Assembly (NCBI RefSeq): GCF_051201565.1
Contig: NZ_CP179200.1
Coordinates: forward strand, 900,001 to 932,000
DNA: 32,000 bases
DNA from: Pseudothioglobus sp. nBUS_23
GTDB lineage: Bacteria; Pseudomonadota; Gammaproteobacteria; PS1; Pseudothioglobaceae
Reading direction: 5' to 3'
The notes below the pieces were generated by a model. It had not been told where the DNA came from and ran no database searches. It saw nothing but the letters and a program-made list of their open reading frames with translations. This document shows, one piece after another, positions 2,706-20,694 of the stretch (its first letter is position 1; the number at the start of each line of letters is the position of its first letter). The translations under genes were made by a program, and so were the position numbers.

Positions 2706-3428
2706 TTAGGCGTCAGGGTTTCCGATGGTTGTTGTGTAGCTAAACATATCAGCTCTGCCTGTTGTGATTCTAAACTCTACTAAGCCCTTGTCCTTAGCAT
2801 AGGAGTGTCGATTTAAAATAACGACTGGATCGCCTTTATTAATGTGAAGTATTTCAGCAATCTCGTCATCAGAGATGCCCGCTGTTAAAACTTCCTGTGA
2901 TGAGGTAATTTGTGTGTCGAATTGCTTAAGAATAACCGCATATAAGAGATCAGGAATGTGAATTGAGTGATCTTGCAAGCCTTCAACAACCTCAGCAACC
3001 CACCATGACTTTTCAACAATAATAGGACTTTTTTTATCGATATAGCCAAGCCTCTCAAGATAAATCACGTCATCTCCCTGATTGATTCCAAGCTGAAAGG
3101 CTATTTCTGCGGAGGCTTTTTGTTTAACTCGGACTGGAGTTGTTTTGAAGATACGTATTGATGAACCGTCTTGCTTTCCATAGCTAAAGAAATTAAAGAT
3201 ACTATTGTCAAATCCATGGTCTGAGACATAGGTTCCTTTTCCATGATGTCTGTAAAGCACTTTTTGATATTCTAGTTTGTCAATCGCTTTTCTTACCGTT
3301 CCTATACTGACATTTAGCTTATTTGAGAGTTGAGATTCAGAAGGAATCAAGTCACCAATTATGAGCTCACCACTATTAATTTGATTGTTAATAAAGTCGA
3401 TTACTTTTTGATAAAGTTTTTGTGTCAT
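2706..3428 (-). CDS. GntR-family transcriptional regulator, HutC subfamily (wHTH + UTRA effector domain)
   Basis: 240 aa. N-terminal LPSESQLSNKLNVSIGTVRKAIDKLEYQKVLYRHHGKGTYV is the GntR HTH signature, and the length and C-terminal half fit a UTRA domain. It is divergent from tctA. Confidence 0.9.
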   Translation of the reverse strand: MTQKLYQKVIDFINNQINSGELIIGDLIPSESQLSNKLNVSIGTVRKAIDKLEYQKVLYRHHGKGTYVSDHGFDNSIFNFFSYGKQDGSSIRIFKTTPVRVKQKASAEIAFQLGINQGDDVIYLERLGYIDKKSPIIVEKSWWVAEVVEGLQDHSIHIPDLLYAVILKQFDTQITSSQEVLTAGISDDEIAEILHINKGDPVVILNRHSYAKDKGLVEFRITTGRADMFSYTTTIGNPDA

Positions 3429-3647: not shown

Positions 3648-5129
3648 ATGGAATTCTTAAATTATTTTGATAATGTTTTTACTGTTTATCATATCGCACT
3701 TTTAGTTGGCGGTACATTTGCAGGCATCATTCTTGGCGCTCTCCCAGGGCTTAGTCCTACAATGTCAGTTGCTCTTCTAATCCCATTTACTTTTCATATG
3801 AAGCCTGAAAGTGGTTTAATTCTACTTGGCGCTATGTATACGGCAACAGTAGCTGGTGGTGCAATAAGTGCCATACTGGTTAACGTTCCGGGAGCCCCTG
3901 CTAATATAGCTACGGCAATGGATGGTCACAAAATGGCCCAGAGTGGTAAAGCCAAAGATGCTCTCCATTATTGTTTTATGAGTTCTTTTGTTGGCGGTAT
4001 TTTCGGTGTGTTCATTCTAATATTTTTTACACCTCCTCTCGCAGCATTGTCTCTTAAGTTTATGTCAACTGAGTTATTCTGGGTTGCTATTCTAGGAATC
4101 ACTATTATTGCTACTTTGGATTCAAAGTCAGTAATTAAAGGGTTGATATCTGGTTTGTTTGGGCTCATGCTTGCAACTATTGGGGAGCACCCTACAAGCG
4201 CTATGGAGCGATTTGTTTTTACTGATCACCTAGAAGGTGGAGTTCATATCGTTGTTGGTCTTATTGGCTTATTTGCGATGCCCCAAGTTTGGAATCTTTT
4301 AGAGAATTTTTATGGCCGTAAAAATGAAGTATTCTCTGCTACTGGTGACTCAACGTTAGCACAATCTTTTAGGCTAGTTTCTGGAAAAATTAAAGCCCTT
4401 TCAATAGGCTCTATTATAGGATCTGTAATTGGAATAATCCCTGGTGCAGGAGGTCAAATTGCAGGTATTGTTGCTTATGACCAATCTAAAAAAGTAAGCT
4501 CAAATAGATCGAACTATGGAAAGGGTGAGCCTGAGGCGATTATTGCTGCAGAGAGCGCTAATAACTCCATGGTAGGGCCTTCATTAATTCCACTTTTAAC
4601 CTTAAGTATTCCTGGAAGTCCAACTGCAGCGGTCCTGCTTGGTGGCTTGCTGATTCATGGAATCTTTCCAGGGCATGACATCTTTACAAAAAATACAGAG
4701 GTTGTTTGGACGTTTATTGATTCTTTAATCATTGCACAGATCTTGATGTTAATTATTGGACTTTTTTTAAGTCGCCATAGTAAGTGGATCATGAAAGTTC
4801 CAGACAACTATATGGCAGTTGGTATCTTACTATTAGCGGTATTTGGCACCTACAGCATACAGAATGACTATTCTGATGTTCTCATTATGTTTGTTTTGGG
4901 AACTATTATGTACTTTGGAGGTAAGGCTGGTTTCAGTCCTGTTCCTGTTGTACTTGGCTTAATTTTGGGCACAATGACCGAAGAAAAATTCCTTCTAGGT
5001 AATATGATAGGAAACGCAAAGGGTAGCTCCTTTCAACACTTTACCTCAGGAACAATTAACCTTATTCTAATAACATTATGTTTTGCCTCAATTGCTTATG
5101 GCATCTACTCTAGTCGAAAATCTAAATAG
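3648..5129 (+). CDS. tctA: Tripartite tricarboxylate transporter (TTT) large permease TctA
   Basis: 493 aa and polytopic. The N-terminus GGTFAGIILGALPGLSPTMSVALLIPFTF, IPGAGGQIAG and LTLSIPGSPTAAVLLG are typical TctA blocks. Confidence 0.9.
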   Translation: MEFLNYFDNVFTVYHIALLVGGTFAGIILGALPGLSPTMSVALLIPFTFHMKPESGLILLGAMYTATVAGGAISAILVNVPGAPANIATAMDGHKMAQSGKAKDALHYCFMSSFVGGIFGVFILIFFTPPLAALSLKFMSTELFWVAILGITIIATLDSKSVIKGLISGLFGLMLATIGEHPTSAMERFVFTDHLEGGVHIVVGLIGLFAMPQVWNLLENFYGRKNEVFSATGDSTLAQSFRLVSGKIKALSIGSIIGSVIGIIPGAGGQIAGIVAYDQSKKVSSNRSNYGKGEPEAIIAAESANNSMVGPSLIPLLTLSIPGSPTAAVLLGGLLIHGIFPGHDIFTKNTEVVWTFIDSLIIAQILMLIIGLFLSRHSKWIMKVPDNYMAVGILLLAVFGTYSIQNDYSDVLIMFVLGTIMYFGGKAGFSPVPVVLGLILGTMTEEKFLLGNMIGNAKGSSFQHFTSGTINLILITLCFASIAYGIYSSRKSK

Positions 5130-5133
5130 AATT

Positions 5134-5565
5134 ATGAATAGACCTTTTAAAATTTCTACAGTTCTAATCACTCTTTTCAGTGCATTCTTAGTTTATGCAT
5201 CTTTTGTCTTAGGAAATAGTGAAGATTACTTATTCCCAAGGCTTATCTCAGGAACAATTGCTGTGCTATCCCTAATGCTTTGGTTTGAAAAGGGCGATGC
5301 AGACAAATCAACTAATTTCAAGGACTTAATGCCAGGTGTTGCTATCGCAACCGCATTTATCCTGTCACTTAAAATATTAGGCTTTTATTTGGCCTCTATG
5401 ATCGTGTTCTTTACTCTTGTGATGTATTACAGCAAGCCTACAGAACCAAAAGACTTTTGGCGTGTGCTACTCATAAAACTGGGTGTCACCATTGTGTTCT
5501 CTCTCACACTTTATGCGTTGTTCACTCTGCTTTTAAAGGTTCGCACACCAGAAGGTTTGTTTTAA
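5134..5565 (+). CDS. tctB: TTT small membrane subunit TctB
   Basis: 143 aa with 4 predicted TM helices, lying between tctA and tctC. I place the start at ATG 5134 (MNRPFKISTV...), 4 nt after the tctA stop. The track start at 5083 would overlap tctA by 47 nt. Confidence 0.75.
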   Translation: MNRPFKISTVLITLFSAFLVYASFVLGNSEDYLFPRLISGTIAVLSLMLWFEKGDADKSTNFKDLMPGVAIATAFILSLKILGFYLASMIVFFTLVMYYSKPTEPKDFWRVLLIKLGVTIVFSLTLYALFTLLLKVRTPEGLF

Positions 5566-5580: not shown

Positions 5581-6540
5581 ATGAAAATAGTAAATATTAC
5601 AAAAGTAGCCTTATTGGCAATTGCATCTTTGATGCTTATGCCAGCTCAGGCTGACTACCCTGATAAGCCAATTGGCGTCATGGTAGCTTATGGACCAGGA
5701 GGAGCAACTGACTTCCAAGCTAGGATTGCAACTCTCGCATCTGGAAAGGAAGGACTTATTGGCCAACCTATATACATCCTTAATAAGCCAGGCGCTGGCG
5801 GAAGAAAGGGTTGGAACTGGTTTGCTAGCGAAGCCTCACAAGATGGATATATGTTAGGCGCTTATAACGTGCCTCACTTTATTGCTCAGTCTATTGTGTT
5901 TGATACAAAATATAATATTGACAATCTTGAGCCCGTAGGTAACTGGGGTGCAGATCCTGCTGTATTAATCGTAGGAAAAGATAGTCCCTTTAATACAGTT
6001 GGAGAATTGCTAGCTCATGCAGAAGCAAATCCAGGAGCTGTAACAATCAGTGGTGCTGGAAAGTTTGTGGGTCATCACATCGCTTTCTTGCAGTTCGCAA
6101 AAGCATCAGGTGCTAATTTAACATACATACCTGCTTCAGGCGGTGTAGACGCACTTAGAATGGTTAAAGCTGGTGAGACAGTTGCCGGGTTTAATAATCT
6201 TTCTGACTCTGCAAGAAGTGCAGCTGATCTAAAGATTCTAGCGGTTGCTGACCTTACAAGACACGAGTACCTTCCTGATGTTCCTACATTAATGGAAAGT
6301 GGTGTCGATGTTGATGACTCTAGTGTTAACTTCCGTGGACTGATGGTTCCAGCAGGAACTCCTCAGGATGTTATTGATTACCTTGCTAGCAAGGTGCCTG
6401 ATATGTTTGGTGAAAAGAAGACAGTTGGTAAGATGAAATCAACTAATTCACCTGCAAGGATAATGACTAGACGAGAAGTTGTAAGCATGTGGAATGAAAG
6501 ACAGGTTTATTTAACTGAGCTTTTAGCTGGTCTTCAGTAA
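5581..6540 (+). CDS. tctC: TTT periplasmic substrate-binding protein (TctC/Bug family)
   Basis: 319 aa. It has a signal peptide ending AQA/DYPDKPI, the characteristic Bug-family mature N-terminus, and PGGATD and KPGAGG blocks. SD AAGGAG lies upstream. Confidence 0.9.
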   Translation: MKIVNITKVALLAIASLMLMPAQADYPDKPIGVMVAYGPGGATDFQARIATLASGKEGLIGQPIYILNKPGAGGRKGWNWFASEASQDGYMLGAYNVPHFIAQSIVFDTKYNIDNLEPVGNWGADPAVLIVGKDSPFNTVGELLAHAEANPGAVTISGAGKFVGHHIAFLQFAKASGANLTYIPASGGVDALRMVKAGETVAGFNNLSDSARSAADLKILAVADLTRHEYLPDVPTLMESGVDVDDSSVNFRGLMVPAGTPQDVIDYLASKVPDMFGEKKTVGKMKSTNSPARIMTRREVVSMWNERQVYLTELLAGLQ

Positions 6541-6566
6541 AGTCTATATATTTAAAATAAATATAG

Positions 6567-6600
6567 CTAGGGAGTGTTTTTCAACTCCCTAGTTTTTTTT
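6567..6600 (+). terminator. Rho-independent terminator after tctC
   Basis: 9-bp stem CTAGGGAGT / ACTCCCTAG (6567-6575 / 6584-6592), an 8-nt loop, then T8 (6593-6600). Confidence 0.8.
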
Positions 6601-6616
6601 CAAAAATTGATTCAAC

Positions 6617-9520
6617 ATGACTATCCAACATAAAACACTAATCGAGCAGCTCGTTTCAGATGCGAGAGACGCCCAAGAAATAATTAATCATTACTCTCAA
6701 GAACAGGTTGACGAATTAATTTTAGCAGTTGCCTGGGAGGTTATTCAGCCTGAAAACAACCAAGAGCTCTCTGAGATGGCGGTAAGCCAAACAGGTCTTG
6801 GAAATGTTGAGGATAAAAAGCGCAAAAATAGACGCAAAACTATTGGACTTTTAAGAGATTTAAAGGATGTCAAAACGGTCGGAATTATAGACGAGAATGT
6901 TCAAACTGGGATTATTGAAATTGCTAGGCCAGTTGGCGTTATAGGGGCTATTGTTCCGTCAACAAACCCTATTGCAACACCACTAAATAAAGTGATTAAT
7001 GCACTAAAGTGTAGAAACGCAATCATTCTAGCTCCATCCCCTAAAGGCGCCAAGGTCTGTTCAAGAGTTGTAGAATTAATACAAATTGCCTTAGTGCGTA
7101 TTGGAGCGCCAAAAAATATTGTCCAATCTTTGCTTGAACCGATTAGCAAAGAGGACACCAACGAATTATCTAATTTAGTTGATCTTATTGTAGCTACTGG
7201 ATCACAAAACAATATACAGCGAGCACTTCAAAGTGGAACGCCAACTCTCGGGGTAGGGGTTGGCAATGTTCCATCAATCATAGATGAGAGCGCGAATCTG
7301 GATGACGCTTCTCATAAAATTATGACTTCTAAAACATTTGACAATGCAACAAGCTGCTCTTCTGAGAATAGCATCGTTGTCCATGAAAAGGTCTATGACT
7401 CTATGATTAGTCGTCTCATTGAAGAGGGAGGCTCACTTTTGAATGGTGATGAGAAACTAAAACTTCAAGGCACCATGTGGAATGATAGAGGGGTGATTAA
7501 TCGTGATGTTATTGCAAAAAGAGCTGCTGAAATTGCTAAGCTAAGTGGCCTTAGTAGCAATCATCTTGATTCAAAATTTTTAATGGTTGAGGAGCAATAT
7601 ATTGGCTCAAGCTACCCATTCTCAATGGAAAAATTATCACCAGTTTTGACTGTTTACAAAGCCAAAGACTTTGATCATGCTGTCAACATCGCAAAGGACA
7701 TTCTGAATAATCAAGGCAGAGGACACTCCTGCAGTATCCACAGTCAAAATGAAGATAACATCTTTAAACTGGGCCAAGAGCTCCCAGTCTGCAGAATCAT
7801 CGTCAATCAAGCGCATTGCTTTGCAACCGGAGGCAACTTCGATAATGGACTGCCATTCTCGTTGTCGATGGGTTGTGGAACCTGGGGCAACAATGTTACC
7901 GATGAAAACTTAAATTATAAGCACTACCTGAATACTACCAAGATAGTTAAAACTATAAAAAATAATGAGCCCTCAGAAAAGGATATTTTTTCTAGTTACT
8001 GGAAAAAATATTCTCTTGAGCACTCAACAATCACCGAATTGGTCGATCAATTTGCAAATGAAACACCGAACAAAAACTATTTGATTGATGCAGACCTCGA
8101 TCTATATGTTACGTATAGCCAATTACAAAAAGATATTTCGAATCTAGGTGCTTATTTTGAAGAAAACAACATCAAAGCAAACGACAAGGTTGGTTTTATG
8201 CTTGATAACGGTTACGCCTCAACTTTATTGTTTATAGGTGCCATGTATCATGGTGTTGTCATTGTTCCATTAAATGTTTTAGCTGGCTCAAAGCAGATTA
8301 ATTACACAATTGATCACTCTGAATGTAAGCTTATCTTTTCATCAAATTTCTATATTTCAAAATTCAAAACTATTTTAGAATCATCAAATGCAAGAGTTGT
8401 TCAGTATAGCGGGATTGAGAGCCTTACTTTTGCAAAGCAAACAAGTGTCCATTTGACTCCTACTCAGCCTAATTCACCAGCAGTTTTGATTTATACTTCA
8501 GGAACAACAGGGGTCCCTAAGGGCGCTCTTTTATCTCACAAAAATGTGCTTTCAGGAGGAAGAAATACTGCACTTGCGCATGAGGTTGTTTCAACTGATA
8601 TCTCTTTTTGTGTTCTTCCTTTGTACCACATTAACGCTGAGATGGTATCGATTGCAAGCGCTCTTGTAAGCAACAGCTGCGTGGTCACAGTTGGAAAGTT
8701 TAGTGTCAGTAATTTCTGGCAAATTATTGAAAAATATCAGTGCACGTGGTTCAGCGTAGTTCCGACCATTATTAACTATCTTTTAAATGACGACTTTGAT
8801 GTTAAGACTTTGAATTTGAAGAATCTCCGCTTTGGGCGATCAGCATCAGCACCTTTGTCTCCAGAGGTTCACAAAAAATTTGAAAAAACCTTTAACATAA
8901 AGATTATTGAGACAATGGGTCTTACTGAAACAGCTGCTCAAATTCTTTCCAACCCACCTAGTGGAGGCAAGCATGGATCTGCAGGGAAGGCTTATGGAAA
9001 CGAAGTCAGAATCATTGATGATCAGGGGAATTATCTATCCGCTGGCACAACAGGAGAGTTGGTCATTAAGGGTGATAATGTGCTCTTAGAGTATTTCAAA
9101 AATGAGGAAGCTACAACTGGTGCTTTTAGCGAAGATGGCTATTTTTTAACTGGAGATCTCGGTGTCGAAGATGATGAAGGTTTCTTTTTTATTACCGGTA
9201 GAAAAAAAGAACTCATAATTAAAGGTGGCGAAAATATTTCTCCTAGAGAGATTGATGACACGCTTTATAAACATAATGCAGTCCTAGAAGCATGCACATT
9301 CGGTATTGAAGATGACAACTATGGCGAAGAAATATCGGCCTGTGTTTACTTGAAGGACGATCTTGTTGCCAATGAAGCAGAGCTTTTAGATTTATGTAAA
9401 GCAGATCTCGGAGAATACAAGACGCCCAGACAAATTATTTTTGTTGATGAGCCTTTACCAAAAGGTCCCTCTGGAAAAATTCAAAGACTTAAGATTGCAA
9501 GTCAATACAGAAGCGCTTAG
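6617..9520 (+). CDS. Bifunctional fusion: CoA-acylating aldehyde dehydrogenase (N-terminal ~450 aa) + AMP-forming acyl-CoA ligase (C-terminal ~500 aa)
   Basis: One uninterrupted 967-aa ORF. The N-terminal half has the AdhE-N/EutE/PduP-type block TSKTFDNATSCSSENSIVV with the catalytic Cys. The C-terminal half has the ANL motifs LIYTSGTTGVPKGALLSH, ETMGLTET, TGDLG, GRKKELIIKGGENISPREID and PKGPSGKIQR. Confidence 0.85.
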   Translation: MTIQHKTLIEQLVSDARDAQEIINHYSQEQVDELILAVAWEVIQPENNQELSEMAVSQTGLGNVEDKKRKNRRKTIGLLRDLKDVKTVGIIDENVQTGIIEIARPVGVIGAIVPSTNPIATPLNKVINALKCRNAIILAPSPKGAKVCSRVVELIQIALVRIGAPKNIVQSLLEPISKEDTNELSNLVDLIVATGSQNNIQRALQSGTPTLGVGVGNVPSIIDESANLDDASHKIMTSKTFDNATSCSSENSIVVHEKVYDSMISRLIEEGGSLLNGDEKLKLQGTMWNDRGVINRDVIAKRAAEIAKLSGLSSNHLDSKFLMVEEQYIGSSYPFSMEKLSPVLTVYKAKDFDHAVNIAKDILNNQGRGHSCSIHSQNEDNIFKLGQELPVCRIIVNQAHCFATGGNFDNGLPFSLSMGCGTWGNNVTDENLNYKHYLNTTKIVKTIKNNEPSEKDIFSSYWKKYSLEHSTITELVDQFANETPNKNYLIDADLDLYVTYSQLQKDISNLGAYFEENNIKANDKVGFMLDNGYASTLLFIGAMYHGVVIVPLNVLAGSKQINYTIDHSECKLIFSSNFYISKFKTILESSNARVVQYSGIESLTFAKQTSVHLTPTQPNSPAVLIYTSGTTGVPKGALLSHKNVLSGGRNTALAHEVVSTDISFCVLPLYHINAEMVSIASALVSNSCVVTVGKFSVSNFWQIIEKYQCTWFSVVPTIINYLLNDDFDVKTLNLKNLRFGRSASAPLSPEVHKKFEKTFNIKIIETMGLTETAAQILSNPPSGGKHGSAGKAYGNEVRIIDDQGNYLSAGTTGELVIKGDNVLLEYFKNEEATTGAFSEDGYFLTGDLGVEDDEGFFFITGRKKELIIKGGENISPREIDDTLYKHNAVLEACTFGIEDDNYGEEISACVYLKDDLVANEAELLDLCKADLGEYKTPRQIIFVDEPLPKGPSGKIQRLKIASQYRSA

Positions 9521-9599
9521 GCTAACAATCTAGTTCACTCAAGAGATCAAAGAATTTACATTTTCGGGTAAACTATGCTTATCGAAATGAGGTACGTTG

Positions 9600-10562
9600 A
9601 TGGCACTACTTGATGATTTAGCTCGCAAGGCTAAAATTAAAAATTCTCGAATTTTATTACCAGAATGCTCTGATCCAAGAGTCTTAGAAGCTGCCCATCT
9701 GATTTCGGAAAAAAATTTAGCTCAAATCGTACTTTTTGATGAAGAGACAGCATCTTCTTTAGGTGTAAGTTCAATCAACCTAAAAAACGAAGATTTGAGG
9801 CTCGAATATGCTCAAACATTGTTTGAGCTTAGAAAGCATAAAGGCGTCACTCTTGAATCCGCATTAGAAATGCTTTCAAGCCCCAGTGTTTGTGCTATGG
9901 TTGCATTGCATAGATCTGAGGTTGATGGCGTTGTCACCGGTGCGATCACTCCGAGCCAGGAAGTTTTGAGTAGCGCTCTCAGAATCATTGGAGTCTCTGA
10001 GAGTAGCAGTCTTGTTTCAAGTTTGTTTTTAATGGTTTTTGATAAAGACCACAAAAGATACGGCGAAAACTTAATTTTTACAGATTGCGCCATGAATATT
10101 TCGCCAAGCTCTGATGAACTTGCTGAGATTGCTTGTAACGCATATGAGACGGCCCAATCTTTTCTGGATGAAGATCCGAAGCTCGCAATGCTCTCTTTTT
10201 CTACTAATCAGAGCGCTAAGCATAGTGAGGTAGACAAAGTTAGGCAGGCCACTGAAATTGTAAGATCTAGGCTTCCAAGTGCCCAAATCATTGGAAATGT
10301 GCAGTTGGATGCAGCGCTTGATTCAGAGGTGCTAAAGATTAAAGACTCTGATTCCTCTTTTCCAACACCTGCCAATGTCTTTGTCTTTCCCAATCTAGAT
10401 GCAGGCAACATTGGTTACAAACTCGTTCAGCGATTCTCTGGAGCCAAAGCAATTGGCCCTATTCTTCAAGGGCTATCCAAGCCCGTGAATGATTTATCTA
10501 GAGGTTGCAGCGTTGATGAAATTGTGAATACAGTTGTTGTAACAGCGAACCAGGTTAAGTAG
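9600..10562 (+). CDS. pta: Phosphate acetyltransferase, short PTA_PTB-only type
   Basis: About 320 aa. Blocks: ILLPECSDPRVLEAA, FTDCAMNISP, FPNLDAGNIGYKLVQR and LSRGCSVDEIVNTVVVTA. I prefer ATG 9600 (GAGG SD 7 nt upstream) to the track's TTG at 9597. There is no terminator between it and the fusion gene. Confidence 0.85.
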   Translation: MALLDDLARKAKIKNSRILLPECSDPRVLEAAHLISEKNLAQIVLFDEETASSLGVSSINLKNEDLRLEYAQTLFELRKHKGVTLESALEMLSSPSVCAMVALHRSEVDGVVTGAITPSQEVLSSALRIIGVSESSSLVSSLFLMVFDKDHKRYGENLIFTDCAMNISPSSDELAEIACNAYETAQSFLDEDPKLAMLSFSTNQSAKHSEVDKVRQATEIVRSRLPSAQIIGNVQLDAALDSEVLKIKDSDSSFPTPANVFVFPNLDAGNIGYKLVQRFSGAKAIGPILQGLSKPVNDLSRGCSVDEIVNTVVVTANQVK

Positions 10563-10564
10563 GC

Positions 10565-12184
10565 TTACATTCCAATATAGTTTGGTCCACCTCCACCTTC
10601 GGGTGGCGTCCAGTTGATGTTTTGAGAGGGGTCTTTGATGTCACAAGTCTTACAGTGAAGACAGTTTTGAGCATTAATTTGAAAATAGTCTTCACCTTCC
10701 TTATCAATGATCTCATAAACGCCTGCAGGGCAATACCTCTGAGCTGGTTCATCAAAGAGCTCTTTGTTTCGAGTGAGAGGAATCGACGGGTCAGTCAGCT
10801 TAAGGTGAACAGGTTGATCTTCTTCGTGATTTGTTCCGGATAGGAACAAAGATGAAGTTATATCAAAACTAAGAACGTTGTCAGGAGCAGGGTACTCTTT
10901 CGCATAAAGAGGATTGTTTAGGTTCAAAGAATCACAATCTCTTTGCTCATCTTTAATCGTAAAAGGCAATGCGTTTCTAAAGATATTAGACTCGATAAAA
11001 TTGTATGCAGCACCCACATAAAAACCAAACTTATGCATTGCGGCACTAAAGTTTCTAGATTTATAGAGCTCCTGATAAAGAGAGCTGCCTTTGAACAAAT
11101 CATCAAAATCACAGATTTCTTCGTTGAGAATCTTATGGATATATTCTGCAGCAAGAATTCCTGACTGAAGAGCGCAATGACTACCCTTTATTTTGCTAGG
11201 ATTGAGTGTTCCAGCGTCACACCCAATAATCATCCCTCCATTAAAGTCCATCTTAACAAGAGAATTGATTCCACCCTTAGTGATAGCTCTAGCTCCATAT
11301 GAAACCCGCTTACCTGAATCTAAAAACTGTTTAATCTTTGGATGCTTCTTAAATTGTTGAAATTCTTGGAATGGGCTGTGACTTGGATTTGTATAGTTTA
11401 AATCAATAATCAAGCCTACTGCCACTCTCTTATTATCAAAATGATATAGAAAGCCACCACCAGTCGTCCCTTCATTTAATGGCCAACCCATTGTATGAAC
11501 GACATCTCCTGGGCTGTGATTATCATTATCTACTTCCCAGACTTCTTTAAAGCCAATAGCAAAGTGTTGTGGCGTTTTGCCTTCATCAAGATTAAACTCT
11601 CTGATTAATTGTTTTCCAAGATGACCTCTTGCACCTTCAGCAAAAATGGTCTGCTTAGCAAGAATGTCCATTCCAGGCGTGTAAGTTCCTTTTTGATTAC
11701 CTTCTTTATCAATTCCCATGTCGCCTGTGGATATTCCAATAACTCTGCCACTTTCATCTTTTAAGTAGCTTTGTGCAGGAAATCCTGGAAAGATATCAAC
11801 GCCTAACTCCATTGCTTTCTCTGAAATCCATTGGCAAAGCTCGCCTAAAGAAATAATATAGTTTCCTTTGTTGTGAAGGCTTTTAGGCATGAGCCATGAA
11901 GGCACTTTGATGCTTTTATTTTCTCCTGTTAACCAAAAGAGATCATCTTTTGCAACCGGAGTTTTAAGTGTGGGGCAATCTTTAGCGTCATCAGGAAAGA
12001 GATCAAAAAGTGTTTTAGGCTCAAAGACTGCACCTGAAAGAATATGAGAACCAATTTCAGATCCTTTTTCAAGAAGACAAACTGAAAGGTTGGGGTTGAG
12101 TTGTTTGAGTTTGCAAGCAGAAGCAAGACCAGAGGGTCCACCTCCAACTATCACTACATCATATTCAATAGATTCTCTTTCCAT
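10565..12184 (-). CDS. Electron-transfer flavoprotein:ubiquinone oxidoreductase (ETF-QO)
   Basis: 539 aa. It has an FAD fold (DVVIVGGGPSGL) and a C-terminal 4Fe-4S region (CPAGVYE...NAQNCLHCKTCDIKDP...NWTPPEGGGGPNY). Confidence 0.92.
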   Translation of the reverse strand: MERESIEYDVVIVGGGPSGLASACKLKQLNPNLSVCLLEKGSEIGSHILSGAVFEPKTLFDLFPDDAKDCPTLKTPVAKDDLFWLTGENKSIKVPSWLMPKSLHNKGNYIISLGELCQWISEKAMELGVDIFPGFPAQSYLKDESGRVIGISTGDMGIDKEGNQKGTYTPGMDILAKQTIFAEGARGHLGKQLIREFNLDEGKTPQHFAIGFKEVWEVDNDNHSPGDVVHTMGWPLNEGTTGGGFLYHFDNKRVAVGLIIDLNYTNPSHSPFQEFQQFKKHPKIKQFLDSGKRVSYGARAITKGGINSLVKMDFNGGMIIGCDAGTLNPSKIKGSHCALQSGILAAEYIHKILNEEICDFDDLFKGSSLYQELYKSRNFSAAMHKFGFYVGAAYNFIESNIFRNALPFTIKDEQRDCDSLNLNNPLYAKEYPAPDNVLSFDITSSLFLSGTNHEEDQPVHLKLTDPSIPLTRNKELFDEPAQRYCPAGVYEIIDKEGEDYFQINAQNCLHCKTCDIKDPSQNINWTPPEGGGGPNYIGM

Positions 12185-12195
12185 TAACTATTATT

Positions 12196-13122
12196 TTATA
12201 CCTGATAAGCGTTCAGCTCATTGAGAGCATCAAATAAATCCACTTGCCAAACTAAATCTGCCATTCTAGACATTGGAGCATCAGGGTCATTATTAATCAC
12301 CACGATAACTTGGGAGTCTTTCATGCCTGCAAGGTGCTGTATAGCCCCGGAAATACCAACTGCCAGATAGAGTTTTGGAGCAACAACTTTACCTGTTTGA
12401 CCAACCTGATAATCATTCGAGATAAAACCAGCATCTACTGCAGCTCTGGAAGCACCAACTGCTGCATCTAGTTTGTCAGCTAGCTGTTCAATCAGGGCAA
12501 AGTTTTCTTTAGAGCCAAGGCCTCTTCCACCAGATACTATTCGCTCTGCTGTGGTTAACTCAGGTCGCTCAGACTCAGACTCTTGTAAAGAAATAAACTC
12601 TGAATTAGATCCTGGCATTGAGGCAGAAATTGTTTCAACAGATGCTGAACCACCATCTCCAGAATGCTCAAAAGCAGTTGCTCTGACAGTCATTACAATT
12701 GTTTCGTCAGATGACTCAACCGTTGCCATAACGTTTCCAGCATAAAGAGGACGAACAAATGTATTATTCGATTTAATTTCACAGACGTCTGAAATTGGTT
12801 GAACATCCAAAAGGGCGCCTACACGAGGCAAAATATTTTTACTGTATGTTGAAGAACCTGAAATCAAGAAGCTATAGCCACTCATGACATCCGCGATAAG
12901 TTTGCTAGCCACTTCAACGTTAGCATTCTCAAGCGAATCATCCACAATCATCTTTACTGTATTGATTCCAGCGAGTGATGAAACAGACGAAGAATTCGAA
13001 GCGTCATTCGTAAGAACTATTGCATCAATTGTGTCCGACAGTTGAGAGGCGGCCGTGATAGCTGCTCTACTATTTGCGCTAACTTCTGAGCCATTAAGCT
13101 CAATTAATATGAGTGCTGACAT
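12196..13122 (-). CDS. etfA: Electron transfer flavoprotein alpha subunit
   Basis: 308 aa. The C-terminal FAD-binding block is [46 protein letters not shown]. Its start overlaps the etfB stop by 1 nt (TAATG). Confidence 0.92.
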
Positions 13123-13883
13123 TAAAGAACTCCCATTTGATTTAATTCATTAAATAGCTCTTCAGCAGAACTAATCTGCTTTGAAGCTCTGTCCTTAGTA
13201 CCAGACTCCTCAACGCTAACCACTTTAATTCGAGGAGCTGTATCTATTTCAAGACTTGATAGCTCAATTGTTTCTAGAGGTTTGGATCTGGCTTTCATGA
13301 TGTTGGGTAGTGAAGCATACCTAGGCTCGTTTAGTCGAAGATCAACAGTCACAATGGCAGGTAGATTTAGTTTTCTTGTTTCAATACCTGAATCTATTTC
13401 GCGACACACTTCAACGCTGCTAGCATCAGCGCTCAAATCAAACTTTGAAATGAAAGTGCCTAGAGAATAGTCAATCAATCCAGATAACATTTGCCCAGTT
13501 TGATTGTTATCATTGTCAACAGCTTGCTTGCCCATGATGACGAGTTGTGCTTCTTCTCGTTTAATAATATTTGCCAAAATCTTAGCAACATGAAGCGGCT
13601 GCAAGTCTAGTTCCGAGTCAGTCTTCACAAATATAGCGCGGTCAACACCCATCGCTAGTGCGGTTCTTAGAGTATCCACTGTCTTGTCAGTTCCAATGCT
13701 CACTGCAATTGTCTCTGATGCTGAGCCGCTTTCTTTTAATGTTAGGGCCTCTTCGACAGCAATTTCACAAAACGGATTCATCGCCATTTTGGCATTGGTT
13801 AAGTCGACTTGTTGAGTTTGGTTGTTAACTCTGGCTTGAGTGTAAGGGTCAAGAACTCTTTTAACTGGGATGATTATTTTCAT
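13122..13883 (-). CDS. etfB: Electron transfer flavoprotein beta subunit
   Basis: 253 aa. N-terminus MKIIIPVKRVLDPYTQ..., NPFCEIAVEEAL and MGKQAVDNDNNQTGQML are typical EtfB blocks. Confidence 0.92.
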   Translation of the reverse strand: MKIIIPVKRVLDPYTQARVNNQTQQVDLTNAKMAMNPFCEIAVEEALTLKESGSASETIAVSIGTDKTVDTLRTALAMGVDRAIFVKTDSELDLQPLHVAKILANIIKREEAQLVIMGKQAVDNDNNQTGQMLSGLIDYSLGTFISKFDLSADASSVEVCREIDSGIETRKLNLPAIVTVDLRLNEPRYASLPNIMKARSKPLETIELSSLEIDTAPRIKVVSVEESGTKDRASKQISSAEELFNELNQMGVL

Positions 13884-14013
13884 ATTAGATTATAAAATTC
13901 ATTACAAAACCCGCGAATAATACCATATTAAAAACTTTTGTCTATAAGTTGAAAACACTATTTTTAAGTGCAAATTATTCATAGCCTAATGGTTTGATTA
14001 TTATTGAGTATTT

Positions 14014-15468
14014 TCATTTTAAAGGAAATCTTAGTTTGGCCTCTGCGCCTTGCTGTATAAAGCGGTTTTGGAGACTTACTTCGCCGCCATGAAGCTTCAT
14101 TATCTTGCGAACAAATCTGAGTCCTAGGCCATTACCTCTAACTCCAGTATCTGGTCTTGAAACTGAGAAGAACCTTGTAAATAGTTTGTTGATGACTTGA
14201 GGTGGAATTCCTGGCCCATCATCTAAAAAAATGATTGAAATAGCAGCGTTTGTTTGAGATGCTTTAATGGTAATCGTTCCAGAAGAGGGGCTAAAGTCCA
14301 GAGCATTATTTACAATGTTTCCAATTGCTTGCTCAAGAAGAATTTTTTCGGCCTTGAGTGACGCACTTGAATTAATTTGAATATCGATCTTTAGCTCTTT
14401 ATCATCGATAGTTTTTTTGCGACTTGGCGCTTTTAAAACAGTATTAACAACTTCCCTGATATTTAATGTTTCAACGTTTTTGAGTGCCTCTCGACGCTCA
14501 ATCCTTGACAGGTCTAAGAGCCTATTTACTAATAAATCCATATGCTTATTTGATTCTAGAATGTTTTCAACAAAGCGCTTTCTTTGTTCATCCGACATTG
14601 GGCTTAAGAGGTTTTCAGCGGTAAGTTGTATACCTGTTATTGGGGTTCTTAGCTCGTGTGCAAGGGTGTCAATGTATTGCTCTACATCGTCCTTAAGCTC
14701 AACATCAGCTCGAGCATCTCTTATAGATCTGGCAAGCTTATTGAACTGATTATTAAGGTCAGGCATTAGAACATCTTCGCCACTAAAAAGGTTTGATGTA
14801 TATTTTTGAACTCTATTAATATTTCTTGATATTCGATAGCTACCTAAAAAACCAAAAAGCAAGGCAATAACGAATATATAGAAAATAAACCTCAAAAGAT
14901 AGTTCTCGCCCATTAGGTCGATTAGGGGTGCAACAACGACAACAGCGCCTAAAATTTCACCTTTGTCACCATAAATTGGATTGGAGGCATTTAAATATCT
15001 AGATTTAATGAAATACTCTATCACGGCGCCTCTAGCTTTTCGGCTACCTCGAGTCTCCTCAATAATGATATTGGTTGTATCTGAAACGCCACTGAGTGCA
15101 GACTCTACCTCATTAATATCTCTCATATCTGTACCCAGGGTCAGCCCTCTTGAGTCGAGGACTAAAAGGCCGTCCTTGTTAGTCACATAAATCGCAAGAT
15201 TTTCTAATTTTTGAGGGTTATTTTTATCAATTGTGTTTCGCTGAGAACGAAGATAGTTCACAATCAGAGTTTCAAAAGTTTCTAAATCAATCTCGCCATC
15301 TTTGTTGTTCTGCGAGGCAACTCGACTCATAAGACTAGAGACCTCAATCACTACCGATTTTGCAGACTCAAAGGTGGTTCTCTGGGCAAAAACCCATAGG
15401 AGGCTAGAAGTTACAATAAAGTAGAGAAGAAATAGTTTTGTACCAATATTGAGCCTAAAGCGCTTCAT
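14014..15468 (-). CDS. Two-component sensor histidine kinase (CreC-like)
   Basis: 484 aa with two TM segments flanking a periplasmic domain of about 170 aa. It has the H-box TLAHELRTPITGI and an HATPase_c domain (DDGPGIP, GLGLRFV). The dimerisation-region pattern (RFVENILESNKHMDLLVNRLLDLSRIERRE) resembles CreC from memory. It overlaps the regulator gene by 4 nt (ATGA). Confidence 0.85.
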   Translation of the reverse strand: MKRFRLNIGTKLFLLYFIVTSSLLWVFAQRTTFESAKSVVIEVSSLMSRVASQNNKDGEIDLETFETLIVNYLRSQRNTIDKNNPQKLENLAIYVTNKDGLLVLDSRGLTLGTDMRDINEVESALSGVSDTTNIIIEETRGSRKARGAVIEYFIKSRYLNASNPIYGDKGEILGAVVVVAPLIDLMGENYLLRFIFYIFVIALLFGFLGSYRISRNINRVQKYTSNLFSGEDVLMPDLNNQFNKLARSIRDARADVELKDDVEQYIDTLAHELRTPITGIQLTAENLLSPMSDEQRKRFVENILESNKHMDLLVNRLLDLSRIERREALKNVETLNIREVVNTVLKAPSRKKTIDDKELKIDIQINSSASLKAEKILLEQAIGNIVNNALDFSPSSGTITIKASQTNAAISIIFLDDGPGIPPQVINKLFTRFFSVSRPDTGVRGNGLGLRFVRKIMKLHGGEVSLQNRFIQQGAEAKLRFPLK

Positions 15469-18868: not shown

Positions 18869-19483
18869 TTAGACGCTAGCTGGATTATCTAAATCGTGTC
18901 CTAAATCCTTAAGGTCTTGATAGCGATCACCAATTCTATGATGAGGTCTACCGCCAATTGAAGCACCCAGTGCAACTACAATTTCATCATCATTTGGTGC
19001 ATCTGGAATAGCCAGCTGAATAGTTAAGTAGTGAGACCGTCGTCCAGCATCATTCTTATCCATCAGTGGGATCATAATAGGAGCATTGGCACCAGCACGT
19101 GTGTTACAAAAAGAGAGGTAAGACTTAGCTCCCACCGCCTCCCGATAAAAATTGCCAAAACGAAGCGTATGGATAATGCCTGAGGCATGCTCAATTTCGC
19201 CTTTTAATCCCACAACCGCTGATTTTCCATAACCCTCAACATTTTCACCTGAGCCAGCCTCTTTTATAATCATAGAAGTAAGTAATTCTCCAAGACCTGG
19301 CGCAACATCTAAAATTCCTGGCTTAAGGTCATCAACAAATTTATTTGGACTGTGCAAGTCAACCCATGGGTTTTTAATGACTGCAAGGGCAGCAATTAGC
19401 TTGAGCGGCTTAGTAGCTTTTTTGTTACCCTCAACCATGGTTTCTTCAACATGTAAAAGCGTTTTTCTTATCTCTGCTGGCAT
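18869..19483 (-). CDS. Amino-acid-synthesis family protein (DUF1185 / AA_synth), function unknown
   Basis: 204 aa. The N-terminus IRKTLLHVEETMVEGNKKATKPLKLIAALAVIKNPW matches my recollection of the PF06684 family pattern. SD GGGAG lies upstream, 18 nt after the cupin gene. Confidence 0.7.
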   Translation of the reverse strand: MPAEIRKTLLHVEETMVEGNKKATKPLKLIAALAVIKNPWVDLHSPNKFVDDLKPGILDVAPGLGELLTSMIIKEAGSGENVEGYGKSAVVGLKGEIEHASGIIHTLRFGNFYREAVGAKSYLSFCNTRAGANAPIMIPLMDKNDAGRRSHYLTIQLAIPDAPNDDEIVVALGASIGGRPHHRIGDRYQDLKDLGHDLDNPASV

Positions 19484-19501
19484 TATCTGACTCCCTTGAG
19501 T

Positions 19502-19855
19502 TTAATCTTGATCAATGGCCTGATTGAGGCCTCTTTGAAAAACTACAATTAAAGCCCCAGTTTTGGAAGATGAGGAGTGCTTACTCCCAGGCTCAAAGGA
19601 AACAAATTCACCTTTTTTAAAGATAGTCCCATCAGCATCAATCAGTTCACCTTCAATCATTAAAAATTCTTCAAAGCCCATGTGCATGTGCGGTACGGTT
19701 TGAGCCCCTGGCTCCATTTTAAGGACATAACTTCCATGTCCACTTGTTTGATTGTAGCTTATGATGTGCCAGCTCATTTTTGGAACGGGTGAGCCATACC
19801 TGTCAAACGGCTTAAATTCTATATTGTGTATATCAATTACTTGTCTATCTTTCAT
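19502..19855 (-). CDS. Small cupin-domain protein (metal-binding motifs intact)
   Basis: 117 aa. Cupin motif 1 is PHMHMGFEEFLMIEG (HxH...E) and motif 2 is GEFVSFEPGSKH. Confidence 0.7.
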   Translation of the reverse strand: MKDRQVIDIHNIEFKPFDRYGSPVPKMSWHIISYNQTSGHGSYVLKMEPGAQTVPHMHMGFEEFLMIEGELIDADGTIFKKGEFVSFEPGSKHSSSSKTGALIVVFQRGLNQAIDQD

Positions 19856-19878
19856 GTTTTGGTAATAAATTGTTATTG

Positions 19879-20694
19879 TTAGATTTCAGATTGCAACCAA
19901 TTGTCTTCTGCATAATGACAATTTGAGTCTACCAGATGAATGCTGTAAGCTTGTCTCGACTTGTTTGAAGTATTCTCAGCGCTGTAGTGTGGCAGCTGTC
20001 CATGAAGAATAATAAGAGTTCCCGCTTTAACCTCTAAAAGGTCTAGCTCATGATCTGGCCAAGGACTTTCATCTAAAATTTCGAATTCTGTGCCGCCTGA
20101 TTGAGCCAACTTAAAGCGCTTTTTAAGAGGCAATGTATGACCTCCTGTCATAGCTTGAAGGCAGCCATTTTCAATGTTTGCATCCTCTAAAGCCATCCAG
20201 AAACCAATACAGCTCATTGGTGAGGTGTAAAGGAACGTTGAGTCTTGATGAAGCCCAACTTCGCCGCCTATATTGGGCTGCTTAAAAATGTGCATGGATT
20301 GAAGCTGTCTAGGCTTTTTTATACCAAGCTGCTTGCCCATCGAGGGTATATCAAGTGAATTGATGACTTTCTTGTATACAGGGTCTAAAGCATGCTGCGC
20401 ATGACCAATTTTATTAATTGATTGTTGTTTTGGAACTGTAAAGTTTCCACTGCTATCTATCGCCTTTTCTTCAAAGAAAAATCTAATCTGATTGCCAGAC
20501 TTTAGAAAATACTCATCGCTTGCTCTCTCTTGTTCGTTTGTAGTAAAGATGGAGCTTGTTGAGGTAGGGTCAAAATCATCAATCATATCTTTAGCTCGAT
20601 TGATAAGTAGTTTTCTCTGTTCTTTTTCGAGAAAATTCTCTACAACGAGATAGCCATCTTTATTGAATGAAGAAATTTGAGTTTGCGACAACAT
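19879..20694 (-). CDS. Fe(II)/2-oxoglutarate dioxygenase, phytanoyl-CoA dioxygenase (PhyH) family, PHYHD1-like
   Basis: 271 aa. It has the HxD facial triad in GLHQDSTF, a distal His in LHGQLPHYS and Arg in SRQAYSIH. The block YFLKSGNQIRFFFEE...SINKIGHAQHALDPVYK resembles the PHYHD1 subgroup from memory. Confidence 0.82.
   Translation of the reverse strand: MLSQTQISSFNKDGYLVVENFLEKEQRKLLINRAKDMIDDFDPTSTSSIFTTNEQERASDEYFLKSGNQIRFFFEEKAIDSSGNFTVPKQQSINKIGHAQHALDPVYKKVINSLDIPSMGKQLGIKKPRQLQSMHIFKQPNIGGEVGLHQDSTFLYTSPMSCIGFWMALEDANIENGCLQAMTGGHTLPLKKRFKLAQSGGTEFEILDESPWPDHELDLLEVKAGTLIILHGQLPHYSAENTSNKSRQAYSIHLVDSNCHYAEDNWLQSEI

Follow-up and report, generated by a model that had tools for sequence, protein, structure and literature searches.

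A gene that joins the two enzymes of sulfoacetate activation and reduction in one polypeptide was found in Pseudothioglobus sp. nBUS_23 (Gammaproteobacteria), within a 32,000-nucleotide stretch of its genome (assembly GCF_051201565.1, contig NZ_CP179200.1, positions 900,001 to 932,000 of the forward strand), which is called the window here and to which coordinates refer unless another locus is named. The open reading frame (ORF) at 6617..9520 on the + strand, delineated from the ORF listing, Pfam, NCBIfam and database matches, is a SauS::SauT fusion, and it is probable that its product is a bifunctional sulfoacetate-CoA ligase/acylating sulfoacetaldehyde dehydrogenase that would feed Xsc and Pta. 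The fusion presents the known SauS and SauT enzymes in a novel arrangement, on one chain, in the company of a tripartite tricarboxylate transporter (TTT) and Pta.

The ORF starts with ATG and encodes 967 amino acids followed by a stop codon; the ORF listing and the translation agree that there is no internal stop, as stated in a preliminary description of this DNA, which had reported one uninterrupted frame. That description had also proposed a coenzyme A (CoA)-acylating aldehyde dehydrogenase (ALDH) followed by an ANL ligase, and the Pfam scan recovered exactly this succession, with Aldedh at residues 7-403 (E 3e-30), AMP-binding (PF00501) at 477-827 (E 4e-72), AMP-binding_C (PF13193) at 878-954 (E 5e-14), and no domain beyond these three. 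The SauS half comprises residues 1-465 (6617..8011, + strand), including its native C-terminal helix at residues 454-465, as delimited by the NCBIfam model NF047625, sequence alignment and an AlphaFold2 (AF2) model; the SauT half comprises residues 471-967 (8027..9517, +) and lacks only the initiator methionine, as judged from PF00501, PF13193 and orthology. Between them lies the junction SLEHS, residues 466-470 (8012..8026, +), defined by aligning 11 fused with 15 split loci. A motif search located in the translation all the motifs that had been quoted earlier and found the catalytic motifs intact in both halves: the catalytic-Cys block TSKTFDNATSCSSENS with Cys247 (residues 237-252, 7325..7372), the ANL P-loop or A3 motif YTSGTTGVPKG (residues 626-636, 8492..8524), TGDLG (residues 845-849), the hinge/A8 motif GRKKELIIKGGENISPREID (residues 861-880, 9197..9256) and the A10 motif PKGPSGKIQR with the adenylation lysine (residues 948-957, 9458..9487), all on the + strand. 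The ANL motifs A3, A5, A7, A8 and A10 are all present in the C-terminal half.

The fusion is genuine and not an assembly error. In 30 loci where the two genes are separate they overlap by a few bases, and a single-base error would generate exactly such an ORF; nevertheless, a sequencing or assembly frameshift that merged two genes is hardly credible, because independent matches of the same length and ten further fused loci were found, which settles the doubt raised in the preliminary description about a frameshift between the halves. All of the best 120 database matches are 967 amino acids long and 98-100% identical to the window protein, they stem from ENA, JGI, Tara, Logan and NCBI assemblies made independently by different projects with different technologies, and one sequence variant recurs on 114 contigs. 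Overall, more than 100 independent metagenome contigs carry the fusion. The ten further loci (64-89% identity) are fused at the same point and have one open frame through the junction, although the junction residues themselves have diverged (SLEHS, YKNS, PSTDS and SMGPS in different fused proteins). Nine of them are in GTDB species-representative genomes (72-89% identity; L007 is truncated at the 5' end), which emerged when each GTDB species was scanned through a single genome, and the tenth, the most distant fusion (64-65% identity), is on a 686-kb ENA contig. The nine genomes bear the names Ca. Pseudothioglobus singularis, Ca. Thioglobus sp., "uncultured Piscirickettsiaceae", uncultured Gammaproteobacteria and SCGC AAA007-O20.

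Family membership shows the N-terminal half to be a predicted acylating sulfoacetaldehyde dehydrogenase, SauS. It matches NF047625, the curated SauS equivalog model (EC 1.2.1.81), with 688.8 bits at a cutoff of 600, residues 6-465 being aligned with model positions 3-462 of 464. In contrast, its scores are far under the cutoffs of the NCBIfam acetaldehyde dehydrogenase and AdhE models; PRK13805 (AdhE), for example, is matched with 401.9 bits at a cutoff of 951, and only its ALDH part is covered. The identity to stand-alone SauS proteins from split loci is 46-59%, and the Cys block is kept in the consensus of 38 SauS sequences (SKTFDxATSCSSENS). The nearest solved structures are an acetylating ALDH and a succinyl-CoA reductase, and solved AdhE chains are matched with 277 bits.

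The C-terminal half is orthologous to the ligase that immediately follows sauS in sauRSTU-type clusters. A survey of whether relatives encode the two halves split or fused, as the preliminary description had suggested, yielded 11 fused loci, all in one clade, and 34 loci elsewhere (in Beta-, Gamma- and Alphaproteobacteria, including Cupriavidus, Pandoraea, Variovorax, Sulfuritalea, Rubrivivax and SAR116) in which the best match of the C-terminal half adjoins, unfused, the best match of the N-terminal half. Thirty of the 34 split loci were analysed in detail, and in every one the ligase is clearly a separate gene that starts at the stop codon of the sauS homologue. The C-terminal half is 38-52% identical over its full length to these 30 ligases, among them those of four Cupriavidus species, whose pairs share 52-53% identity with the SauS half and 41-42% with the SauT half. 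The adjacency and order of sauS and sauT in Cupriavidus, which had been stated in the preliminary description, were directly seen in these loci, and the Cupriavidus pinatubonensis locus L029 (IclR, SauS, SauT and a major facilitator superfamily (MFS) protein) has the published sauRSTU layout. The SauT/SauS chemistry had been put forward as an analogy; with an N-terminal half above the SauS cutoff and a C-terminal half that groups with the ligases downstream of sauS, the case is now stronger than analogy.

The split loci also reveal the anatomy of the junction. Their gene order equals the domain order of the fusion, sauS followed by the ligase gene, with an ATGA overlap in most of them. Stand-alone SauS proteins end with (I/L)FGDYWxK(F/Y)GK, stand-alone ligases begin with M..(S)T(I/V)xxL(I/V)D, and the fusion reads DIFSSYWKKY-SLEHS-TITELVDQ across the junction, so that a stretch of about five residues is the only part that cannot be assigned to the conserved end of either parent. 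The earlier view that the halves are joined by a linker, KTIKNNEPSEKDIFSSYWKKY, was therefore mistaken: this segment aligns with the C-terminus of stand-alone SauS proteins and is SauS's own conserved tail. In the nearest split relative, L002 (59% identity in the SauS half and 52% in the SauT half), the two genes overlap by 14 nucleotides, the ATG of the ligase being located 11 nucleotides ahead of the sauS stop codon (TATGGATCTAAGTAA). Loss of one G at this overlap would give the reading KY-DLSNQTI..., which has the same architecture as the fusion. To fuse translationally coupled sauS and sauT genes, it would be enough to delete a single base where stop and start overlap; such a deletion would have removed the last two or three residues of SauS and the methionine of SauT, with no linker at the join. 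Neighbour-joining trees of both halves are congruent, all fused proteins forming one clade with the split L002 as its sister, which indicates a single fusion event, placed in the common ancestor from which the heterotrophic Pseudothioglobus/Thioglobus lineage descends. As events go this one is ordinary, the fusion of two translationally coupled neighbour genes in one clade, and its product is clean, ancient within the clade and abundant in the environment, while also being an expected outcome for coupled neighbours.

The translational coupling of the ancestral genes might suggest that one ORF still yields two proteins, through a second translation start near the junction or through proteolytic cleavage, in which case the function would be no different from that of split sauS and sauT, and an in-frame TTG is indeed located nine codons past the junction of a fusion that is known here from sequence. 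Such a separation is quite improbable, however. The window junction lacks a Met, an ATG or GTG codon and anything like a Shine-Dalgarno sequence, and the frame has stayed free of stops in 11 lineages that have diverged to 64% identity. In addition, the AF2 model, which was built from a 23-sequence alignment, shows not a disordered, cleavable linker but a six-residue loop between the helix at 454-465 and the first ligase helix at 472-482, with a dip of the predicted local distance difference test score (pLDDT) at 461-470.

It should be noted that fusions could also arise independently elsewhere. In two betaproteobacterial metagenome-assembled genomes, sauS and sauT share a reading frame and are separated by a stop codon plus 12 nucleotides (L053, 1530-1545) or 66 nucleotides (L011, 11378-11447), and mutation or read-through of the stop codon would yield such a fusion. 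Long ORFs that span both genes in the high-GC loci L022, L026, L036 and L053 were rejected as the same architecture; they are alternative frames, and frame-aware tblastn shows two genes.

In the window, the fusion gene is located between genes for a transporter and Pta, and the gene order is GntR on the - strand, TctA, TctB, TctC, fusion and Pta on the + strand, and ETF-QO, EtfA and EtfB on the - strand. TctA, the large membrane subunit of a TTT and presumed sulfoacetate importer of the SauX type, is encoded at 3648..5129 (+; PF01970, E 7e-129), the small membrane subunit TctB at 5083..5565 (+; PF07331), and the periplasmic binding protein TctC, SauZ-like by context, at 5581..6540 (+; PF03401). 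Wherever the sequence of a fused locus extends far enough upstream, TctA is conserved ahead of the fusion, and the TctABC-fusion-Pta block is common to the fused loci with sufficient flanking sequence. The TctC copies beside the fusion in relatives are 75-98% identical, and those beside split sauS-sauT pairs 75% (L002) and 58-60% (L023 and L025). Pta, a phosphotransacetylase (9597..10562, +; PRK09653 with 345.6 bits at a cutoff of 310, and TIGR00651 with 337.3 bits at a cutoff of 311.2), follows the fusion directly in 10 of the 11 fused loci; the exception is L001, where xsc adjoins the fusion and, together with a 520-amino-acid ORF on the opposite strand, stands between the fusion and pta.

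Classically, Pta acts together with Xsc, and Xsc is encoded near the pair in several other loci as well. It is found about 10 kb upstream of the fusion in L010 and within 10 kb of sauS-sauT in 10 of the 30 split loci. A further case is a 220,492-bp JGI contig, the DNA of which is 95.2% identical to the window and which encodes a fusion with 99% amino acid identity. On this contig, Xsc is located about 104 kb from the fusion, in a complete taurine/Xsc/glyoxylate-shunt island that comprises TauABC, TauE, TauR, Tpa, Ald, Xsc, malate synthase, AceK and isocitrate lyase. The finds of Xsc, Pta and glyoxylate-shunt genes imply that this population has a complete pathway leading from sulfoacetate via acetyl-CoA into the glyoxylate shunt.

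The established route of sulfoacetate degradation runs from SauT to SauS and then to Xsc (PMC10413351), and the fused system would follow the same order. The adjacent TctABC would import sulfoacetate, and the C-terminal ANL half would convert it via sulfoacetyl-AMP to sulfoacetyl-CoA, releasing AMP and PPi. The N-terminal half would then reduce the thioester with NAD(P)H, via a thiohemiacetal on Cys247, to sulfoacetaldehyde and CoA. Xsc, encoded elsewhere in the genome, would cleave sulfoacetaldehyde to sulfite and acetyl phosphate, and the co-transcribed Pta would turn the latter into acetyl-CoA. The domain order is opposite to this order of reactions because it reflects the gene order, and it places the rotating C-terminal subdomain of the ligase at the free end of the protein. 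Because the ligase is of the AMP-forming type, the pair would run in the degradative direction. The opposite flow, from sulfoacetaldehyde (for example derived from taurine) via sulfoacetyl-CoA to sulfoacetate, could be envisaged since acylating ALDHs are reversible, and SauS-like enzymes with ADP-forming ligases have been proposed to operate in this way in fermenters (PMC10413351). For the fusion it is very improbable: a ligase that forms AMP and PPi makes the release of the acid with a gain of ATP implausible, and the cluster contains an uptake system with a periplasmic binding protein as well as Pta.

Several points weigh against the assignment of a sulfoacetate pathway to this cluster. Xsc is missing from the 32-kb window and from the adjoining 10 kb on the left, and a protein search combined with a cluster look-up picked out no Xsc copy of the source genome, the presence of which is deduced from the population with 95% identity. 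The presumed likeness of the window TctC to Bilophila SauZ, and to the UniRef50_Q165A0 group of the characterised sulfoacetate-binding SauZ, derives from gene context. The best NCBIfam matches of the C-terminal half (the PRK06187 long-chain-fatty-acid-CoA ligase subfamily and others) are all under their cutoffs, and there is no curated SauT model among them, so that the orthology of this half was examined through gene context; its predicted specificity follows from that orthology, with about 41% identity to Cupriavidus SauT, and from context. The AF2 model has confidently predicted domains (mean pLDDT 84), but its predicted template-modelling score (pTM) of 0.61 yields no usable information about inter-domain arrangement or a tunnel.

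No curated SauT model is matched by the ligase half, and the same two-step chemistry might serve another small anionic acid (malonate, oxalate, 3-sulfopropanoate or glycolate, for example), the SauS match then being a family resemblance. Among solved structures, the ligase half is closest to oxalyl-CoA synthetases and to the malonyl-CoA synthetase MatB, enzymes for small dianionic acids, which also accords with sulfoacetate as the substrate; a malonyl-CoA synthase subfamily of NCBIfam is matched with 277 bits, though under its cutoff, and genes for isocitrate lyase and malate synthase occur near the cluster in relatives. Nevertheless, this alternative is unlikely. The N-terminal half exceeds the SauS equivalog cutoff while staying far under those for acetaldehyde dehydrogenase and AdhE, and both halves are orthologous to the sauS-sauT pair of Cupriavidus. 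Moreover, Pta lies downstream in every fused locus, which is sensible only with acetyl phosphate, the product of Xsc, and Xsc itself is adjacent or close in L001, L010 and the 10 split loci.

The likely benefits of the fusion would be a fixed 1:1 stoichiometry and the proximity of the two active sites for a CoA thioester that is costly in ATP. Fusion might perhaps also stabilise the ligase, which the abstract of Weinitschke 2010 is said to have described as labile. A more far-reaching idea, which we regard as doubtful, is that the linker-less fusion channels its intermediate, the mobile C-terminal subdomain of the ligase handing sulfoacetyl-CoA to the ALDH site of the same or a neighbouring subunit. 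If this were true, the costly thioester would be protected and streamlined oceanic bacteria could scavenge nanomolar sulfoacetate; the protein would then be the first CoA-dependent carboxylate reductase that nature is known to have built as one polypeptide, and engineered acid-to-aldehyde modules, for example for the reduction of formate or glycolate, could be modelled on it.

The architecture is very rare. Among 1.84 billion cluster representatives that were searched, only P0121, the query's own family, spans both halves, and the matches that rank next are single proteins, either ligases (53% identity) or SauS-like dehydrogenases (48-50%). No chain among the solved structures spans both halves. 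Longer matches and matches in two stretches were rejected as the same architecture because they were AdhE, di-ligases, and proteins resembling nonribosomal peptide synthetases with A-PCP-TE/C organisation. A putative haloarchaeal luciferase-like-monooxygenase::ALDH protein was likewise rejected as an unrelated fusion. In this connection, P0209 is an acidic, probably haloarchaeal protein of 971 amino acids with a SauS-like acylating ALDH at 511-961 after an N-terminal region of about 500 residues; by eye this region looks like a luciferase-like monooxygenase, and the protein would be a different, undescribed ALDH fusion. The preliminary description had known of no characterised member, and a literature search, outside of which the original 2010 sauRSTU report lay, likewise found no description or characterisation of a SauS-SauT fusion. 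In the literature searched, no paper connects sulfoacetate with the SUP05/Thioglobus lineage. NCBI names the protein by its N-terminal half only, and JGI gives both generic functions.

The closest functional counterpart is the SauS and SauT pair of Cupriavidus necator H16 (sauRSTU; Weinitschke et al. 2010, as cited in PMC10413351), with which the fusion shares enzyme families, gene order and, presumably, chemistry. In C. necator, however, the two are separate proteins accompanied by an IclR-type regulator and the MFS protein SauU, whereas the window encodes one polypeptide without a linker, a GntR-type regulator and TctABC, with pta in the operon. Bilophila wadsworthia (SauXYZ-SauCD-SauS) likewise has a TTT beside an acylating sulfoacetaldehyde dehydrogenase, with sulfoacetyl-CoA as the intermediate, but it uses separate proteins, an ADP-forming two-subunit ligase (SauCD), and an isethionate/IseG route instead of Xsc (PMC10413351). 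Its SauXYZ is the proposed sulfoacetate importer, SauZ binds sulfoacetate with a Kd of 0.13 uM, and SauZ homologues adjoin SauT and SauS in Alpha- and Gammaproteobacteria (PMC10413351). TTT-sauST clusters have been described in sponge symbionts (PMC12625764). The layout of the window recurs, yet with separate genes, in the TctABC-sauS-sauT clusters that marine and sponge-associated bacteria carry in split form (PMC12625764), as well as in L002.

Two other multidomain enzymes invite comparison with the fusion. The carboxylic acid reductases (CAR; A-PCP-R) catalyse the same net ATP- and NAD(P)H-dependent conversion of a carboxylate to an aldehyde on one polypeptide with an ANL adenylation domain. 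CAR passes the acyl group on a phosphopantetheine arm to a reductase of the short-chain dehydrogenase/reductase (SDR) type. By contrast, the Pfam scan found no PP-binding or NAD_binding_4 domain in the fusion, which would use free CoA and a reductase of the ALDH fold; it is thus not a CAR, since both the carrier domain and the SDR-type reductase are absent. AdhE has a homologous N-terminal acylating ALDH domain, but its partner is an iron-dependent alcohol dehydrogenase (Fe-ADH) that acts downstream of the ALDH step, while the partner in the fusion is an ANL ligase that would act upstream. As the Pfam scan found no Fe-ADH domain (PF00465) in the 967-amino-acid protein, it is not an AdhE either.

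The chemistry and the pathway are already known, and the fusion thus represents an incremental advance unless channelling is demonstrated. Nevertheless, it provides a "Rosetta-stone" link that independently confirms the ligase encoded after sauS as the functional partner of SauS, which matters because this ligase has no curated family model and NCBI names only the ALDH partner. Furthermore, it would extend sulfoacetate catabolism to an abundant group of oceanic bacteria, the heterotrophic SUP05/Arctic96BD-19 (Pseudothioglobus) lineage. Finally, the fusion is a ready-made natural module of ligase and acylating ALDH on one polypeptide; synthetic pathways have assembled such modules from two separate enzymes (PMC8511477, PMC6298115).

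The spacer between tctC and the fusion gene contains an 11-bp stem-loop followed by a T-run (6565..6602, +), identified in a terminator scan as a terminator or attenuator-like element. A stable hairpin is present at this position in all nine fused loci examined (window, L001, L005, L006, L008, L009, L010, L012 and L039), with a T-run behind it in four of them, namely the window, L001, L005 and L006. The stems differ in sequence, which suggests that structure rather than sequence is conserved. The hairpin may act as an attenuator within the operon or may stabilise the mRNA, giving more binding protein than enzyme. The divergent gene at 2706..3428 (-) encodes a regulator of the GntR/HutC type (NCBIfam GntR-family matches), a candidate regulator of the cluster, and its position is kept in the fused loci L005, L008, L010 and L039 (75-94% identity). 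The start of pta is given as TTG 9597 in the ORF listing; the next codon, ATG 9600, with GAGG 7 nucleotides upstream, is the likely start instead. In two loci a neighbour of the intact fusion ORF was called in two or three fragments, namely TctA in L001 (4270-5754) and Pta in L094 (5984-6947), which are probably assembly frameshifts or incipient pseudogenes.

Glyoxylate-shunt genes stand beside or between Xsc and the sau cluster in L010 (426-5939) and L089-L093 (11797-19785): isocitrate lyase, AceK and an IclR regulator in both, and malate synthase G too in L089-L093. Their position would fit growth on the C2 unit freed from sulfonates. In L010, the gap between Xsc and the cluster encodes DUF924, a GlcG/HbpS-like protein, RraA, AceK, isocitrate lyase and IclR, and SoeABC was not found in it. 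A different arrangement was observed in L085-L088, a Thioglobus sp. lineage without the sau module, which has the same block of pta, ETF-QO, EtfAB and histidine kinase as the window (9597-15468). Directly upstream of that pta are TauABC, TauR, Tpa, Ald, Xsc and a SoeCBA-like sulfite dehydrogenase, suggesting that the site upstream of pta houses alternative sulfonate modules depending on the species. Finally, farther along the window (18869-20694, -), three small genes for an AA_synth (PF06684) protein, a ChrR-type cupin and a PhyH-family dioxygenase are found together, and a second PhyH gene is located just left of the window (L084).

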